Virus record (IMG/VR): IMGVR_UViG_637000104_000001
Reading direction: 5' to 3' (one strand)
Source: a virus
Lineage: Duplodnaviria > Heunggongvirae > Uroviricota > Caudoviricetes
Length of the DNA: 41,687 nt
Every line of letters starts with the position of its first letter. Within the stretch, counting starts at the first letter, position 1. Below the pieces are notes generated by a model. That model did not search any database and was not told the origin of the DNA. It was given only the letters and a program-made list of their open reading frames with translations. This document shows positions 1-13,199 of the stretch, piece after piece. The position numbers and the translations under genes were made by a program.

Positions 1-3091
<3,091 letters not shown>

Positions 3092-3102
<11 letters not shown>

Positions 3103-3467: not shown

Positions 3468-3707
3468 CTATTTCCTGCGTATGGCACGTAACTTCTTAAT
3501 GTGTTCTGCCGTTTCGATCTCTTCTGCTATCCGATCTGCATCAGCTTTATTCACAGGTTCAAAGTCATGATTAAAGCGGAACATGCTGGCGATACATGTT
3601 CTGCCTTTTCGGATGTAGTGAACTTTGTTGTGGGTAGAACGCAGGATTTTGCAGGGAGTGCCGTGGTGGTCGACGTACCAGGTGTTAGGAAAAATGATTC
3701 TGAACAT
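3468..3707 (-). CDS. Hypothetical protein (ea-region)
   Basis: 79-aa ORF in the int-exo accessory region; no recognised motif. Confidence 0.4.
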   Translation of the reverse strand: MFRIIFPNTWYVDHHGTPCKILRSTHNKVHYIRKGRTCIASMFRFNHDFEPVNKADADRIAEEIETAEHIKKLRAIRRK

Positions 3708-3754
3708 TTTTACACCTCAGTTGGACGATGTTGAAATTTGCTGCTTTGAGGCCA

Positions 3755-3973
3755 TCACAGTCCCCATTGTTTGTTCTTAAGTTCGATCTCCTCCTGGCAA
3801 CTTGCACAAGTCCGACAACCCTGAACGGCCAGGCGTCTTCGTTCATCTATCGGATCGCCACACTCACAACAATGAGTGGCAGATATAGCCTGGTGGTTCA
3901 GGCGGCGCATTTTTATTGCTGTGTTGCGCTGTAATTCTTCAATTTCTGATGCTGAATCAATGATGTCTGCCAT
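3755..3973 (-). CDS. TraR/DksA-family C4 zinc-finger protein
   Basis: 72 aa with CxxC...CxxC (HCCECG ... CRTCASCQ) at the C-terminus, typical of phage TraR-like proteins. Confidence 0.65.
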   Translation of the reverse strand: MADIIDSASEIEELQRNTAIKMRRLNHQAISATHCCECGDPIDERRRLAVQGCRTCASCQEEIELKNKQWGL

Positions 3974-4071
3974 CTTTCATTAATCCCTGAATTGTTGGTT
4001 AATACGCTTGAGGGTGAATGCGAATAATAAAAAAGGAGCCTGTAGCTCCATGATGATTTTGTTTTTCATGT

Positions 4072-4353
4072 TCACCGTTCCTTAAAGACGCCGTTTAACA
4101 TGCCGATCGCCAGGCTTAAATGAGTCGGTGTGAATCCCATCAGCGTTACCGTTTCGCGGTGCTTCTTCAGTACGCTACGGCAAATGTCATCGACGTTTTT
4201 ATCCGGAAACTGCTGTCTGGCTTTTTTGATTTCATAATTAGCCTGACGGGCAATACTGCGAAGGGCGTTTTCTTGCTGAGGTGTCATTGAACAAGTCCCA
4301 TGTCGGCAAGCATAAGCACACAGAATATGAAGCCCGCTGCCAGAAAAATGCAT
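4072..4353 (-). CDS. Hypothetical protein (93 aa; possibly shorter from internal Met at 4287)
   Basis: ORF in the lambda ea8.5/orf61 position; no motif recognised. Confidence 0.4.
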   Translation of the reverse strand: MHFSGSGLHILCAYACRHGTCSMTPQQENALRSIARQANYEIKKARQQFPDKNVDDICRSVLKKHRETVTLMGFTPTHLSLAIGMLNGVFKER

Positions 4354-4363
4354 TCAGTGGTTG

Positions 4364-4555
4364 TCATACCTGGTCTCTCTCATCTGCTTCTGCTTTCGCC
4401 ACCATCATTTCCAGCTTTTGTGAAAGGGATGTGGCTAACGTATGAAATTCTTCGTCTGTTTCTACTGGTATTGGCACAAACCTGACTCCAATTTGAGCGA
4501 GGCTATGTGCCATCTCGATACTCGTTCTTAACTCAACGGGAGATGCTTTGTGCAT
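4364..4555 (-). CDS. Hypothetical protein, lambda orf63-like
   Basis: 63 aa, same size and position relative to exo as lambda orf63. Confidence 0.5.
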   Translation of the reverse strand: MHKASPVELRTSIEMAHSLAQIGVRFVPIPVETDEEFHTLATSLSQKLEMMVAKAEADERDQV

Positions 4556-4716
4556 ACAGCCCCTCGTTTATTATTTATCTCCTCAGCCAGCCGCTGGGCT
4601 TTCAGTGGATTTTGGATAACAGAAAGGCCGGGAAATACCCAGCCTCGCTTTGTAACGGAGTAGACGAAAGTGATCGCGCCTACCCGGATATTATCGTGAG
4701 GATGCTTCATCGCCAT
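4528..4716 (-). CDS. Hypothetical protein, lambda orf60a-like
   Basis: 62-aa ORF overlapping the exo stop and the orf63-like start, the same overlapping arrangement as lambda orf60a. Confidence 0.4.
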
Positions 4717-5387
4717 TGCTCCCCAAATACAAAACCAATTTCAGCCAGTGCCACGTCCATTTTTTCGATGAACTCCGGCACCATCTCGTCAAAATTCGCC
4801 ATGTACTTTTCATTCCGCTCAATCACGACATAATGCAGGCCTTCACGCTTCATACGCGGGTCATAGTTGGCAAAGTACCAGGCATCTTTTCGCGTCACCC
4901 ACATGCTGTACTGCACCTGGGCCATGTAAGCCGATTTTATGGCCTCGAAACCACCGAGCCGGAACTTCATGAAATCCCGGGAGGTAAACGGGCATTTCAG
5001 TTCAAGGCCGTTGCCGTCACTGCATAAACCATCGGGAGAGCAGGCGGTGCGCATACTTTCGTCGCGATAGATGATCGGGGATTCAGTAACATTCACGCCG
5101 GAAGTGAATTCAAACAGGGTTCTGGCGTCGTTCTCGTACTGTTTTCCCCAGGCCAGCGCCTTAGCATTAACTTCCGGAGCCACACCGGTGCAAACCTCAG
5201 CCAGCAGGGTGTGGAAGTAGGACATTTTCATGTCAGGCCACTTCTTTCCTGAGCGGGGCTTTGCTATCACGTTGTGAACTTCTGAAGCGGTGATGACGCC
5301 GAGCCGTAATTTGTGCCATGCATCATCCCCCTGTTCGACAGCTCTCACGTCGATCCCGGTACGCTGCAGGATAATGTCCGGTGTCAT
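4707..5387 (-). CDS. exo: Lambda exonuclease (Red alpha)
   Basis: 226-aa translation is near-identical to remembered lambda Exo ([40 protein letters not shown]...). Confidence 0.97.
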
Positions 5388-6169
5388 GCTGCCACCTTCT
5401 GCTCAGTGGCTTTCTGTTTCAGGAATCCAAGAGCTTTCACTGCTTCGGCCTGTGTCAGTTCTGACGATGCGCGAATGTCGCGGCGAAATATCTGGGAACA
5501 GAGCGGCAATAAGTCGTCATCCCATGTTTTATCCAGGGCGATCAGCAGAGTGTTAATCTCCTGCATGGTTTCATCGTTAACCGGAGTGATGTCGCGTTCT
5601 GGCTGACGTTCTGCAGTGTATGCAGTATTTTCGACAATGCGCTCGGCTTCATCCTTGTCATAGATACCAGCAAATCCGAAGGCCAGACGGGCACACTGAA
5701 TCATGGCTTTATGCCGTAACATCCGTTTGGGATGCGACTGCCACGGCCCCGTGATTTCTCTGCCTTCGCGAGTTTTGAATGGTTCGCGGCGGCATTCATC
5801 CATCCATTCGGTAACGCAGATCGGATGATTACGGTCCTTGCGGTAAATCCGGCATGTACAGGATTCATTGTCCTGCTCAAAGTCCATGCCATCAAACTGC
5901 TGGTTTTCATTGATGATGCGGGACCAGCCATCAACGCCCACCACCGGAACGATGCCGTTCTGCTTATCAGGGAAGGCGTAAATTTCTTTCGTCCACGGAT
6001 TAAGGCCGTACTGGTTGGCGACGATCAACAATGCGATGAACTGCGCATCGCTGGCATCACCTTTAAATGCTGTCTGGCGAAGAGTGGTGATCAGTTCCTG
6101 TGGGTCGACAGAATCCATGCCGACACGTTCAGCCAGCTTCCCTGCCAGCGTTGCGTGTGCTGTACTCAT
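5384..6169 (-). CDS. bet: Red beta single-strand annealing protein
   Basis: 261 aa, near-identical to remembered lambda Bet ([43 protein letters not shown]...). Confidence 0.97.
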
Positions 6170-8656: not shown

Positions 8657-8724
8657 TCTAAAATGAATAATTAAGTTGTTTTACTGAATGAGCACAATGC
8701 CCGGTTGATAATTTTTAATTGGTA

Positions 8725-9453
8725 CTATCCATGCTTCCTATACGTCTGCGGCATGCTCCCAATAACTTTCCCGAAGATAAATACCCGGTTCATCTCATCT
8801 TTCTCGATCGGGTCCCACGGTGAGTAGCTTTTGTTATCAGAGATAACCAGCAGCTTATCCTTCATCATTTGCAGGCGCTTTACATGGGCTGTGTCGTCGT
8901 ACAGAAACGCATAGATACCATCACCGTCGAAAGATTTAACCGTGATATCAACGAATAGAAGATCACCAGGTTCAATCGTTCCTGACATGCTGTCACCGCG
9001 TACGTTAATGATGCGGATATTTTCTGCCTTCCTACCATCGAACATGTGACGAGCATCGTCAAACGAGTACTCAACCGAGCGTAGAACTTCTACAAACTCA
9101 CGGTTGATGACTCCCGGCCCGGCACTCACTTCTATATCAAGAACGTCAATTTTAAAGTATTTGGAATAGCTGACAGCAGGCTTCCCTGATTGTTGACCGT
9201 CATTTCTCATCGGGCCTATGCCTGATGAGAGCCATTCTGTTCGAACACCCAATGCATTAGCTATTTCAACAATTTTTGTTGAGCCGCGCGCGTTGCCGCT
9301 TGTCAGTCTCCAGATTGTGGGTTGAGCTACGCCAGACGCCTTTGCAAGAGCGCCTTGAGACATTCCAGATTGTTCCATCGCTAGGTTTAAGCGATCAGCA
9401 AGAGTTTCTTTTTTCATAAGTTTTAATTTATACGCTTGCGTATTGATGGTCAA
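8725..9453 (-). CDS. CI-like prophage repressor (HTH N-terminus + S24 LexA-like autopeptidase C-terminus)
   Basis: HTH region QGALAKASGVAQPTIWRL; S24 catalytic Ser in VRGDSMSG and Lys in HVKRL. Divergent from the cro-like gene. The true start may be the internal Met (MKKETLADRLN). Confidence 0.85.
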   Translation of the reverse strand: MTINTQAYKLKLMKKETLADRLNLAMEQSGMSQGALAKASGVAQPTIWRLTSGNARGSTKIVEIANALGVRTEWLSSGIGPMRNDGQQSGKPAVSYSKYFKIDVLDIEVSAGPGVINREFVEVLRSVEYSFDDARHMFDGRKAENIRIINVRGDSMSGTIEPGDLLFVDITVKSFDGDGIYAFLYDDTAHVKRLQMMKDKLLVISDNKSYSPWDPIEKDEMNRVFIFGKVIGSMPQTYRKHG

Positions 9454-9461
9454 AAAACGTT

Positions 9462-9519
9462 TTGCTATTGCTTGGATTAATACGCATTGCTATTATTTAT
9501 TCATTGCAATACCAATAGG
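9462..9519 (+). promoter_or_regulatory. Putative oR/pR operator-promoter region
   Basis: Operator-like motifs TTGCTATTG (9462-9470), ATTGCTATT (9486-9494) and CATTGCAATACCAATAGG (9502-9519). Candidate pR is TTGCTT (9468-9473), 17-nt spacer, TATTAT (9491-9496); AGGA RBS precedes the cro-like ATG. Confidence 0.5.
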
Positions 9520-9527
9520 AATTGATA

Positions 9528-9755
9528 ATGACAAATCAAACCATTCAACTCGCAATCAGTATTACAGGTAGTCAAAAACGACTGGCAGATCTATGCGGTG
9601 TAGCCCAACCCACAGTTTGGCGTTGGCTACACGGTGGCGGAATTGATGCCCGCTATGTAATGAAAATTGTCTCAGCCACTGGTGGAAAGATTAAACCAGC
9701 AGATATTCGTCCCGACCTCGCACCATTGTTTAACGCGAGTAATTCTGCCGCCTAA
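9528..9755 (+). CDS. Cro-like HTH regulator (YdaS-like)
   Basis: Small HTH protein (LADLCGVAQPTVWRWLHG), first gene of the rightward operon, divergent from the repressor. Confidence 0.7.
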   Translation: MTNQTIQLAISITGSQKRLADLCGVAQPTVWRWLHGGGIDARYVMKIVSATGGKIKPADIRPDLAPLFNASNSAA

Positions 9756-9779
9756 ACTGCGGCGTTAACTGATAAGGCA

Positions 9780-10325
9780 ATGACTATGCAACCACTTACA
9801 TACCAACAGACTAGCGGATTTAGCCCGACTGCGGTGATAAATCGTTCTCAAACAAAACAGGCGCCAGGCCACGAAAAAATCCGTGATGCCGTTCGCGCCT
9901 GGTCGGCTGCAGATAATCAGGATGTTGTTGCCGCACTCATTGTGAATGAGTATCGGGAGCAGGGCGGCGGCACCATCGATTTCCCTGATGATGTCAGCCG
10001 TGCACGCCAGAAGCTGTTCCGCTTTCTCGATAACAAATTCGATTCTGAAAAATACCGAAATAACGTGCGTGAACTGACCCCGGCAATTCTGGCGGTACTA
10101 CCGCTGGAATATCGCGGCCACCTGGTTGAGCAGGATAGCTACATGGCTCGGCTGGCTGAAATGGAAAAGGAACTCAGTGAGGCAAAACAGGCTGTCATTC
10201 TCAACGCACCACGCCACCAGAAACTGAAGGAGATGAGTGAAGGCATTGTGTCGATGTTTCGTGTGGACCCGGATCTGGCTGGTCCATTGATGGCGATGGT
10301 CACCACCATGCTGGGGGCAATATGA
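9780..10325 (+). CDS. CII-like regulatory protein (YdaT/CII-analogue position), 181 aa
   Basis: Position between the cro-like gene and O; the assignment is positional only. Confidence 0.4.
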   Translation: MTMQPLTYQQTSGFSPTAVINRSQTKQAPGHEKIRDAVRAWSAADNQDVVAALIVNEYREQGGGTIDFPDDVSRARQKLFRFLDNKFDSEKYRNNVRELTPAILAVLPLEYRGHLVEQDSYMARLAEMEKELSEAKQAVILNAPRHQKLKEMSEGIVSMFRVDPDLAGPLMAMVTTMLGAI

Positions 10326-11341
10326 CAGGTTCAGAAATGGCGAAAGCCGGTCTGCGCGAACAGAACCGACTTTCAGGTGCAAATCGTAACACACTCATTG
10401 CGGGAGGAATTATGGCAAACACTGCTGAGATATTCAATTTTCCAGTGCCGGATGTGGCACAAAAGGAGCCGCGCGTGGCAGATCTCGATGATGGTTATAC
10501 GCGCATTGCAAATGAGTTGCTGGAAGCTGTGATGCTGGCCGGATTAACACAGCACCAGCTTCTGGTCTTCCTGGCTGTCATGCGCAAAACATATGGCTTT
10601 AATAAAAAACTGGATTGGGTGAGCAACGAGCAACTTTCCGAGTTGACCGGGATATTGCCGCACAAGTGTTCTGCTGCAAAAAGTGTTCTGGTAAAGCGTG
10701 GGATTTTTATTCAGAGCGGGCGGAATATCGGCATTAATAATGTGGTCAGTGAATGGTCAACATTACCCGAATCAGGTAAGAAAAATAAAGTTTACCTGAA
10801 AGAGGTAAATTTACCTGAATCAGGTAAGAAAAGTTTACCCAAATCAGGTAAAGACGTTTACCCGAATCAGGTAAACACAAAAGACAAACTAACAAAAGAC
10901 AATATAAAACCTTTTTCGTCCGAGAATTCTGGCGAATCCTCTGACCAGCCAGAAAACGATCTTCCTGTGGTGAAACCGGATGCTGCAATTCAGAGCGGCA
11001 GCAAGTGGGGGACAGCAGAAGACCTGACCGCCGCAGAGTGGATGTTTGACATGGTGAAGACCATCGCGCCATCAGCCAGAAAACCGAATTTTGCAGGGTG
11101 GGCCAACGACATCCGCCTGATGCGTGAGCGTGACGGGCGTAACCATCGCGACATGTGCGTTCTGTTCCGCTGGGCCTGCCAGGACAACTTCTGGTCCGGT
11201 AACGTGCTGAGTCCAGCAAAACTCCGCGACAAGTGGACTCAGCTCGAAATTAACCGCAACAAGCAACAGGCTGGTGTGACTGCCAGCAAACCAAAACTCG
11301 ACCTGACAAACACTGACTGGATTTACGGGGTGGAGCTATGA
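10322..11341 (+). CDS. O: Replication initiator O (alternative start at 10412 with GGGAGG RBS)
   Basis: ADLDDGYTR..LLEA....LT..Q..V.LA..RKTYG.NK matches the lambda O N-terminal domain; contains the iteron origin internally; ATGA overlap with the upstream stop. Confidence 0.85.
   Translation: MTGSEMAKAGLREQNRLSGANRNTLIAGGIMANTAEIFNFPVPDVAQKEPRVADLDDGYTRIANELLEAVMLAGLTQHQLLVFLAVMRKTYGFNKKLDWVSNEQLSELTGILPHKCSAAKSVLVKRGIFIQSGRNIGINNVVSEWSTLPESGKKNKVYLKEVNLPESGKKSLPKSGKDVYPNQVNTKDKLTKDNIKPFSSENSGESSDQPENDLPVVKPDAAIQSGSKWGTAEDLTAAEWMFDMVKTIAPSARKPNFAGWANDIRLMRERDGRNHRDMCVLFRWACQDNFWSGNVLSPAKLRDKWTQLEINRNKQQAGVTASKPKLDLTNTDWIYGVEL
10763..10915 (+). repeat. Replication origin: 4-5 iterons (approx. 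TTACCCGAATCAGGTAA, each internally palindromic) followed by an AT-rich stretch
   Basis: Direct repeats at about 10763-10780, 10791-10809, 10811-10828, 10834-10853 and 10857-10876, then AT-rich 10877-10915; located inside O as in ori-lambda. Confidence 0.75.
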
Positions 11342-12051
11342 AAAATATTGCCGCGCAGATGATTAACTTTGACCGTGAGCAGATGCGTCGAATCGCCAAC
11401 AACATGCCGGAACAATACGACGAAAAGCCGCAGGTGCAGCAGGTGGCGCAGATCATCAACGGTGTGTTCAGCCAGCTGCTTGCGACATTTCCGGCAAGCC
11501 TCGCGAACCGCGACCAGAACGAGCTGAACGAAATCCGCCGTCAGTGGGTTATGGCTTTCCGTGAAAATGGAATTACCACTATGGAGCAGGTTAACGCCGG
11601 AATGCGCGTGGCCCGCCGACAGGAGCGACCATTCCTGCCGTCGCCCGGCCAGTTCGTAGCGTGGTGTAAGCAGAGTGGCGGGGCGTTAGGTATCACTGTT
11701 GACCAAGTCATAACCGAATACTGGGATTGGCGTAATCGTTCCTTCGAATTCACTTCCAGCGAGCATTTCCCGTGGTCACAGCCTGTCATGTACCACATCT
11801 GCGTCGAACTGCGCCACCGCAGCACAGAGCGCCAGTTAACGCATGGTGAGCTGGCGCGTGAAGCCGGCGATCTGCTGGACATGTGGGAGAGGCGCGTCAC
11901 CGAGGGCAAACCAGTACCGCCTGTGCGCCGGGCGATTGCAGCACCGGCTGCCGAGCATGGCCCGACGCCAATCCAGCTGCTTCAGGCGAAGTACAACCGC
12001 AACAAGTCGAACGGGATGGTGCGAAGTGGTAAAGAAGATAATAAAGAATAA
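11338..12051 (+). CDS. P: Replication protein P (helicase loader); lambda-like N-terminal half, divergent C-terminal half
   Basis: First ~110 aa near-identical to lambda P (MKNIAAQM.NFDREQMRRIANNMPEQYDEKPQVQQVAQIINGVFSQLLATF...); the sequence diverges after ..FVAWC. Confidence 0.85.
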   Translation: MKNIAAQMINFDREQMRRIANNMPEQYDEKPQVQQVAQIINGVFSQLLATFPASLANRDQNELNEIRRQWVMAFRENGITTMEQVNAGMRVARRQERPFLPSPGQFVAWCKQSGGALGITVDQVITEYWDWRNRSFEFTSSEHFPWSQPVMYHICVELRHRSTERQLTHGELAREAGDLLDMWERRVTEGKPVPPVRRAIAAPAAEHGPTPIQLLQAKYNRNKSNGMVRSGKEDNKE

Positions 12052-12129
12052 TATTTAGGGTTATAGGTCTTAGCCCATTTTAAATGGAAGGCAGACATGC
12101 AGCCATGCATACTTCGCATGGCAACATAA

Positions 12130-12558
12130 TTATTTAGACAAACTATCTAATTTCTGCGTCGCTTTTTGTGTTAGGTCGCTGTAACTGATAAACCCTACGT
12201 TAGCACCTACAATTAACACTAAGAACACTAAGCTGCATATGGATAGAGTGGCAGATTTATGCTTATGGAAAACAAAATATGCTACTATTGCACTTAATAT
12301 GAAGGAAATGAATAGAAATATAGATGTTGATGTTTTTAGATATTTTTCAGGAAATAATGGGTGAGCAATAATGTATACAAGATTAAGTAGTATATAAATT
12401 GCTACCGGAATGAAAATCATGCTCCAGTGTGTATCTTTTTTGGGAGGGATTGGCTGCAAATAATCAGACACCGTTTTTCCATCAGTTTCAAGAAGAATTA
12501 CTAGATCTCTTACTTCACCACTGACTTGAGTGCCATCCTTAGTAGTAATGTTAATCAT
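12130..12558 (-). CDS. Small integral membrane protein (about 142 aa, three predicted TM helices)
   Basis: Hydrophobic segments IFIPVAIYILLNLVYIIA, IFLFISFILSAIVAYFVF and LSICSLVFLVLIVGANVGFI. Start chosen at the ATG forming an ATGA overlap with the upstream stop (12555-12558). Antisense to the replication operon. Confidence 0.5.
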   Translation of the reverse strand: MINITTKDGTQVSGEVRDLVILLETDGKTVSDYLQPIPPKKDTHWSMIFIPVAIYILLNLVYIIAHPLFPEKYLKTSTSIFLFISFILSAIVAYFVFHKHKSATLSICSLVFLVLIVGANVGFISYSDLTQKATQKLDSLSK

Positions 12559-12932
12559 TTTTTCCCTCCAAATACGATTCCCTCTACGTCTTTGGAAGCT
12601 TTTTGTGATGACCACTCCTCTGAATCAGGTGATTTAATTAAAAATATTGTATCTCCATCAAAAATCGTATTTGTTCCGTAAAAATTTACATTTGATAGAT
12701 CACCACCAAAAACCCTCTGCCCACTCGAGGTAATTGCCTCACCTAATTTAGTAAAATTACCTGCAATAGATGATTTTCTTTTTCCACTTCTATTCAAAGT
12801 GGCTTTAATTACACCACCACCATCCTTAGAGTTAAATAATTGAATGTCCACTCCAGCAGTTGGTTGTATATATTTTGAAAGCTCTTTCTTGAACTTGTTA
12901 ATATATTTATCTTTGTTTTCTTTGTTGGTCAT
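12555..12932 (-). CDS. Hypothetical soluble protein, 125 aa, Gly-rich
   Basis: ORF translationally coupled to the downstream membrane protein gene; no recognised motif. Confidence 0.45.
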   Translation of the reverse strand: MTNKENKDKYINKFKKELSKYIQPTAGVDIQLFNSKDGGGVIKATLNRSGKRKSSIAGNFTKLGEAITSSGQRVFGGDLSNVNFYGTNTIFDGDTIFLIKSPDSEEWSSQKASKDVEGIVFGGKK

Positions 12933-13199
12933 TGGTTAGATCCATAGTTCTGGCTGTGATTAGGTGAAAGTATACAAGGTTTTTAAAGCGAAGATCACTG
13001 TTTTGGCTTCAAGATAGTTTTGATTTATCGTAATCAATCCGCCATAATCCTCTCATCGGAGCCTGAACAACTCCGGTGACTTCTGCGCATTTAAGGGGAC
13101 TTAAATGCGACCACAATCTGAACTCATCACCTTGTCACAGATGCAGAAATGCACCTGCGATGTCTTGCATCCAGCGTTTGATCTCTGCGGAGGTGAAGC

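Follow-up and report, generated by a model that had tools for sequence, protein, structure and literature searches.

A lambda P-family helicase loader with a lambda-type amino-terminal half and a phi80-type carboxy-terminal half

The window analysed here, a 41,687-nt stretch of DNA from a tailed virus (Caudoviricetes; IMG/VR record IMGVR_UViG_637000104_000001), carries a replication gene whose product follows lambda P closely for its first ~110 residues and then departs from it. Where does the second half of this protein come from: is it unrelated to lambda P, as the original prediction held, is it a lambda P half that diverged in place, or is it a module inherited separately and joined by recombination?

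The gene lies at 11338..12051 (+ strand), an intact open reading frame of 237 aa in the early-right operon (gene order cI, cro, cII-like, O, P). It sits immediately 3′ of the gene for the origin-binding initiator, the ATG of P overlapping the stop codon of O as ATGA at 11338–11341. Its product scores 166.2 bits against the Pfam profile Phage_lambda_P (PF06992; cutoff 26), covering positions 1–161 of 162, and this whole-length match makes it a member of the family; the two halves searched singly score 89.1 and 60.3 bits, each above the cutoff. The match to a lambda P chain in the PDB is equally clear (8v9t, E = 4e-77), and the protein, found across thousands of E. coli assemblies, already has a RefSeq entry, WP_000788796.1 (‘replication protein P’). 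Homology to lambda P, whose residues 103–233 alone keep robust DnaB binding (PMC6391071), suggests a replicative helicase loader that would bind the DnaB hexamer of the host, open it and bring it to the O–origin complex. Within the family, full-length identity assigns it to neither known type: over aa 111–196 it shares only 23% identity with lambda P sensu stricto (the allele of lambda, 434, 21 and Stx phages), and over aa 1–95 only 64% with the phi80 gp14 allele.

Two halves with different relatives

Lambda P is divided into domain I (residues 1–29, or 1–40 in the refinement bodies), domain II (~30–119), domain III (~120–192) and domain IV (193–233; PMC12661323). The main DnaB contacts of each protomer come from domain III and from the lasso of domain IV; of the five domain IIs, four do not touch DnaB, and F99 of the five protomers forms a single-stranded DNA (ssDNA) site (PMC12661323). 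The amino-terminal part of P binds O, through the carboxy-terminal region of O (PMC6022878, PMC4926192). The original prediction had likewise assigned the first part of P to O and the second to DnaB, in agreement with this literature (PMC4926192, PMC6022878, PMC6391071, PMC12661323).

Mapping these limits onto the window protein, together with identity to lambda P, assigns codons 1–95 (11338..11622, +) to a lambda-type domain I, the amino-terminal lasso, and most of domain II. Over residues 1–110, 106 of 110 positions are identical to lambda P, which bears out the near-identity first noticed there, and the DNA of nt 11338–11620 is 88% identical to lambda. The match is then lost where it had been predicted to be, after about residue 110: identity to lambda P is 23% over residues 111–196 and 13% over 197–228. 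The peptide originally quoted, KQSGGALGITVDQVITEYWDWRNRSFEF, is indeed present.

Codons 111–228 (11668..12021, +) are instead of the phi80/HK639 gp14 type, as judged from identity, Pfam and Foldseek, and correspond to domain III, which grips DnaB, and domain IV, the carboxy-terminal lasso. Over these residues the window protein is identical to phi80 gp14 at 110 of 118 positions (93%) and to HK639 gp14 at 114 of 118 (97%); the amino-terminal halves of the same two proteins are just 64–65% identical to that of the window protein. In a translated search of the phage collection the best matches were ‘replication protein 14’ of HK639 and gp14 of phi80, which is annotated ‘similar to lambda P’. The idea that this half is unrelated to lambda P fails, as the half alone matches Phage_lambda_P (E = 2.5e-16, profile positions 70–161) and the lambda P domain III chain of crystal structure 8v9s (E = 1.6e-7). 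This half is thus the phi80-class form of these domains, distantly homologous to domains III–IV of lambda P. An exhaustive search with the carboxy-terminal half found only 78 cluster representatives, in which the module begins at position ~105, at ~50 or near the amino terminus; some of the short representatives may be fragments.

Structure prediction is supportive only. The AlphaFold2 model, made from a 20-sequence alignment, is all-helical with helices where expected, at a mean pLDDT of only 61; Foldseek with this model ranks lambda P chains first (9oa1_Z, E = 3e-16; 9oa2 also matched), and the low-confidence modelled domain III superimposes on 8v9s with a TM score of 0.81 (2.1 Å RMSD, 70 columns, 23% identity).

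Beyond residue 228 the protein carries a nine-residue tail, RSGKEDNKE, which with its stop codon occupies 12022..12051 (+). DNA alignment shows that the phi80-type stop codon TGA reads CGA at 12022–12024, adding the tail; phi80 similarity ends at the stop codon, and the codons of the tail lie where an AT-rich insert has its left edge. In P0063, a sibling allele of 228 aa, the normal stop is retained. The tail is predicted to be disordered (pLDDT <50) and is probably tolerated, by analogy with lambda P, whose lethality survives a 66-aa carboxy-terminal tag (PMC3640518). Two minus-strand open reading frames downstream of P gave no PADLOC match and only a sub-threshold Pfam match.

The junction and the block inherited with O

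BLASTN similarity to lambda-type P genes ends at nt 329 of the query (nt 11666 of the window), in keeping with the junction first proposed near nt 11670. A maximum chi-square test on 272 informative DNA sites (window equal to lambda versus window equal to phi80) places the best split slightly earlier, between nt 11608 and 11616, with 57 lambda-like and 12 phi80-like sites to its left and 18 lambda-like and 185 phi80-like sites to its right. The chi-square of 140 was reached in 0 of 10,000 permutations, so the step in identity is far beyond chance. In protein identity it is a single change, from 96% to 23% for lambda and from 64% to 93% for phi80. Lambda-like and phi80-like signals are mixed over nt 11598–11667, and we take this switch of informative sites as the crossover interval (11598..11667, +).

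The interval holds the sequence ERPFLPSPGQFVAWC (codons 96–110, nt 11623–11667), including the equivalent of lambda P F99. This stretch aligns in all nine full-length P-family loaders that we compared, some of them only 29–50% identical elsewhere; its pattern at the end of domain II, PF(L/W)PSPGQF(V/I)xWC with the F99 equivalent, is present in the window protein. Written as a block of 14–15 codons, (E/N)RPFLPSPGQFVAWC, it is conserved among the P-family loaders compared and lies at the domain II/III boundary. The conserved block and the published domain limits together therefore place the joint at this boundary, the one stretch in which the DNA of the diverged alleles is identical enough to recombine, and the coincidence with the structurally placed boundary is exact. 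The locus thus shows what characterizes a lambdoid mosaic junction: an abrupt switch of nearest relative, a conserved stretch at the switch and a boundary that is reused elsewhere.

The lambda-type part of P extends upstream into O. The initiator gene (10412..11341, +; Pfam Phage_rep_O, E = 7e-34) starts earlier, from 10322, in RefSeq and phage records, and its product is 97–99% identical to the O proteins of phages 4A7, PhiR34_1 and Perceval. As had been predicted, it is mosaic relative to lambda O and has different iterons: the amino-terminal ~165 aa are about 45–50% identical to lambda O and the carboxy-terminal part is nearly identical. A repeat search located the origin inside O (10763..10879, +), where five copies of the palindromic TTACCCGAATCAGGTAA are followed by an AT-rich stretch and GC content falls to 0.37. 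These iterons differ from those of lambda (ATCCCTCAAAACGAGGGA), as do those of phi80 from the window's, and the amino-terminal domain with its five iterons represents another specificity type than that of lambda, common to phages such as 4A7 and PhiR34_1.

The carboxy-terminal, P-binding domain of O and domains I–II of P lie together on a continuous block of lambda-type DNA (10875..11666, +; BLASTN), 89.9% identical to lambda over 792 nt, with lambda similarity absent on both flanks. Sliding identity to phage 4A7 is 99–100% from 8500 to ~11070 and 83–95% from ~11070 to 11620, after which the sequence is of phi80 type; these steps imply at least two breakpoints. Given that the carboxy-terminal region of O and the amino-terminal part of P bind each other, the block holds an interacting pair, and so the two partners have been inherited together. 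O and P are not among the genes discussed in PMC9836094, which treats co-transfer in lambdoid phages. The block includes the lambda-type carboxy-terminal tail of O, KPKLDLTNTDWIYGVEL (11288..11338, +), which its conserved motif marks as a candidate docking peptide for the amino-terminal half of P. The motif is conserved in initiators that adjoin P-family loaders, the type of the tail matches the type of the P amino-terminal half, and the tail is the sole part that the HK639 initiator and phi80 gp15 have in common. In lambda itself, the last five residues of O were inferred to be essential from a sequenced amber allele that encodes 294 of the 299 aa (PMC6022878).

Taken together, these observations favour, with a probability of about 0.85, a functional lambda P-family loader made of two separately inherited modules joined by homologous recombination inside the conserved block at the domain II/III boundary, with binding partners and function assigned by homology. 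The first module, domains I–II (aa 1 to ~110), is of lambda type and lies on the same ~790-bp lambda-type block as the carboxy-terminal domain and tail of O; it is expected to dock on O bound at the prophage's own iterons, to form the P–P spiral and to carry the F99-equivalent ssDNA site. The second, domains III–IV (aa ~111–228), is of phi80/HK639 gp14 type and is predicted to have the same fold as these domains in lambda P; it would grip the carboxy-terminal domains and DH–LH site of DnaB in order to open the ring and bring the helicase to the origin. Such a history is ordinary lambdoid mosaicism, intragenic mosaicism at domain boundaries being the expected mode of lambdoid evolution. The locus nonetheless offers a clean natural experiment, in which domains I–II travel with the carboxy-terminal domain and tail of O and domains III–IV move independently.

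Age, distribution and alternative explanations

Both halves are under purifying selection, with dN/dS of 0.02–0.04. The amino-terminal half (codons 1–110) differs from lambda with a dS of ~1.0 and a dN/dS of 0.02; the carboxy-terminal half differs from phi80 and HK639 with a dS of 0.72–0.75 and a dN/dS of 0.02–0.04. Among 5,426 complete E. coli genomes, no ‘pure’ parent outside the chimeric lineage was closer than ~88–89% DNA identity for the amino-terminal half or ~87% for the carboxy-terminal half. These two results show that neither lambda nor phi80 is a recent parent and that the event is old; either the window's lineage or lambda's may be the recombinant one. The chimera was absent from isolated phages in the phage collection searched.

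Selection may have favoured the exchange for its effect, and of the alternatives this one keeps most, though we give it only a minor share of the probability. Domains III–IV and the nine-residue tail might alter DnaB engagement or chaperone-driven release, or allow escape from a host or prophage factor directed against lambda-type P, so that the host range or exclusion profile of the replication module would differ. Most DnaB contacts of lambda P fall in domains III–IV, precisely the region that is here only 23% identical; two deep classes of carboxy-terminal half coexist in E. coli prophages (lambda-type amino-terminal halves occur in 2,863 of the 5,426 genomes and phi80-class carboxy-terminal halves in 185, among them the phi80 remnants carried by DH5alpha and DH10B); and the chimeric allele is widespread. 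Yet both classes of carboxy-terminal half, as lambda and phi80 attest, work with the same E. coli DnaB, neutral exchange explains the data equally well, and the tolerance of lambda P to the 66-aa tag means that a short tail need not matter. A literature search for the biochemistry of phi80 gp14, its DnaB contacts or phi80 growth on groP/grp hosts found nothing usable. An extension of the same idea, and a similarly speculative one, is that P-family loaders in general could act as two-piece adaptors, with an amino-terminal half that reads the carboxy-terminal docking peptide of the initiator (KPxLDxxNTDWxYGV) and an autonomous DnaB-gripping half of which there are at least two classes, deeply diverged, the lambda–phi80 combination then having distinct helicase-loading or exclusion-escape properties rather than being a neutral shuffle. 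Were this so, the combination might, for example, be more or less sensitive than others to dnaB (groP) alleles, chaperone release or anti-loader defences.

Decay is improbable as an account of the gene, which would then be a chimera without current function, left over in a prophage that is itself defective. Positions 1–32048 of the window are 99.86% identical to the lambdoid prophage beside icd in uropathogenic E. coli (UPEC) 536, in which P is the gene annotated as WP_000788796.1 and the integrase is interrupted by IS100; P may thus no longer be used in that particular host, and the lost stop codon with its nine added residues points the same way. Decay in general is opposed by the intact reading frame, by the presence of the exact 237-aa protein on at least 1,000 contigs and by the allele family of WP_000788795.1, which shares the junction and in which all 14 differences from the window over codons 1–110 are synonymous, with 0 non-synonymous. 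An isolated phage, 4A7, is moreover 99–100% identical to the window over the replication region, from 8500 to ~11070.

Very unlikely, in our judgement, is a history with no recombination at all, in which the carboxy-terminal half would be a lambda P sequence that diverged fast in place under relaxed or positive selection on the DnaB-binding part. Detectable homology to lambda P domains III–IV fits that account, as does an identity matrix in which this half is generally less conserved than the amino-terminal half across the P family. It fails on the 93–97% identity to phi80 and HK639 gp14, whose amino-terminal halves reach only 64–65%, on dN/dS values that indicate no relaxation in either half, and on the one-step identity profile that no permutation matched. 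The thought that the half might prove to be simply diverged lambda P thus holds as to distant homology and fails as to uniform divergence, which the comparison with phi80 and HK639 rules out together with the permutations.

An assembly or sequencing chimera, for which nothing but the abruptness of the change speaks, is ruled out for practical purposes: a 100% identical gene is carried by at least 30 complete genomes of E. coli that are independent of one another (at ≥99% identity, by 37 such records, UPEC 536 included), and the same junction is present in the second allele family, that of L73/65COLEC.

Comparison with known loaders

Lambda P (PDB 9OA1, 8V9T, 6BBM; PF06992) and the window protein, which we read as a mosaic of two family types, are alike in family, in the ATGA overlap with O, in the F99 block and in domain order. 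The window protein differs from lambda P in lacking two residues after the block, in the size of its lasso linker, in its nine-residue carboxy-terminal tail and in domains III–IV (aa 111–228), which are only ~23% identical. Relative to gp14 of phi80 and HK639 (‘replication protein 14’, a P-like loader) it has the same length up to the phi80 stop position, but lacks the phi80-type one-residue insertion in the amino-terminal half and has lost the stop codon. The partner initiators differ correspondingly in their tails, lambda-type ..NTDWIYGVEL in the window against ..NTDWAYGVIR in phi80. The window protein and phi80 gp14 thereby offer what appears from homology to be a second DnaB-binding module, ~23% identical to that of lambda, acting on the same helicase.

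The E. coli prophage allele WP_000788795.1 (strains L73 and 65COLEC; 228 aa; listed in 1,935 blocks of the contig collection index), has the same lambda/phi80 junction, adjoins the same O type and is identical to the window protein through aa 163. Over its last ~65 residues it has yet another phi80-class variant, the third and a more diverged one, which implies a further junction near nt 11826, between codons 163 and 164. The normal stop is present in this allele, and a gene for an MT-A70 methyltransferase lies downstream, not the AT-rich cassette of the window.

The domain II/III boundary recurs in other loaders. PPompW_EH2246 encodes a stand-alone 140-aa phi80-class domain III–IV protein, annotated ‘phage replication protein’ (BCI50177.1), which starts at the same boundary, matches PF06992 positions 61–161 and is 49–50% identical to window aa 101–228; it has no domains I–II, and its partner initiator is a DnaT-domain/HTH_36 protein, not O. 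The P proteins of TL-2011b and EC.W1-9 are identical to each other from aa ~87 to the end and 35% identical before, a mosaic at the same place as in the window; their carboxy-terminal half belongs to another subclass (36% identical to that of the window), and each of the two has a DnaT-domain protein as its partner initiator. In laboratory hybrids that crossed over within O, domains and not genes are the units of exchange, the O amino-terminal domain moving with the iterons and the O carboxy-terminal domain with P. The window O follows the same pattern, but here in a natural allele that has a second crossover, inside P.

An initiator tail that may pair with the amino-terminal half of P

Initiator proteins encoded upstream of P-family helicase loaders carry a conserved carboxy-terminal tail, KPxLDxxNTDWxYGV, which is found in lambda, 4A7, phi80, Edno5, Yersinia phage 29.18, PHB10 and TL-2011b; in the window this motif lies in the tail of O (11288-11338). 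The HK639 initiator bears no relation to O apart from a stretch of 19 residues at its carboxy terminus, 18 of them identical to the tail of phi80 gp15, and the amino-terminal half of HK639 P is likewise of phi80 type. EC.W1-9 has an initiator that lacks the tail, and the amino-terminal half of its P differs. The pattern across HK639, EC.W1-9 and the tail-bearing phages suggests that the tail is the docking peptide for the amino-terminal half of P. Phage PPompW_EH2246 encodes P domains III-IV only, as a stand-alone protein of 140 aa (locus 2468-2890). Its gene adjoins that of a 346-aa initiator with HTH_36 and DnaT domains, whose carboxy terminus (..ALDCTDWRDD) has a faint likeness to the NTDW tail.

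A further breakpoint lies within O itself, at window ~11070. Identity to the isolated phage 4A7 is 99-100% over 8500 to ~11070, then falls to 83-95% over ~11070 to 11620, a drop that points to a third, unsampled lambda-type lineage as the source of both the carboxy-terminal third of O and the amino-terminal half of P.

Integrase and the cII position

In the E. coli 536 prophage, near-identical to the window, the integrase is listed in RefSeq as a pair of pseudogene fragments, split by an IS100 insertion (istA/istB; locus 8664-11765, window ~1-3100), so this prophage is probably unable to excise. The gene in the cII position (9780-10325, 181 aa) encodes a YdaT toxin-domain protein according to RefSeq and Pfam; it resembles the 'cII' of phi80 and 4A7 (68.9% DNA identity to that of phi80) and not lambda cII.

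Cargo downstream of P

An AT-rich island (~12030-13050; GC 0.29-0.40 against ~0.55 in the flanks) separates P from a ybcN/ninB-like gene. It holds two ORFs on the minus strand that overlap each other: 12130..12558, with a membrane-like product of 142 aa, and 12555..12932, with a product of 125 aa. Both are 'hypothetical' in RefSeq; a PADLOC search of the pair returned no match, and a Pfam search only a sub-threshold one. The island probably represents a moron or an accessory cassette.

Directly 3' of P lies a variable cargo site. In the sibling prophages of E. coli L73 and 65COLEC, whose P allele has the same lambda/phi80 junction, P is followed (3690-6118) by an MT-A70 methyltransferase pseudogene, a phosphoribosyltransferase-like PRTase-CE gene and a NADAR gene, where the window has the AT-rich cassette.
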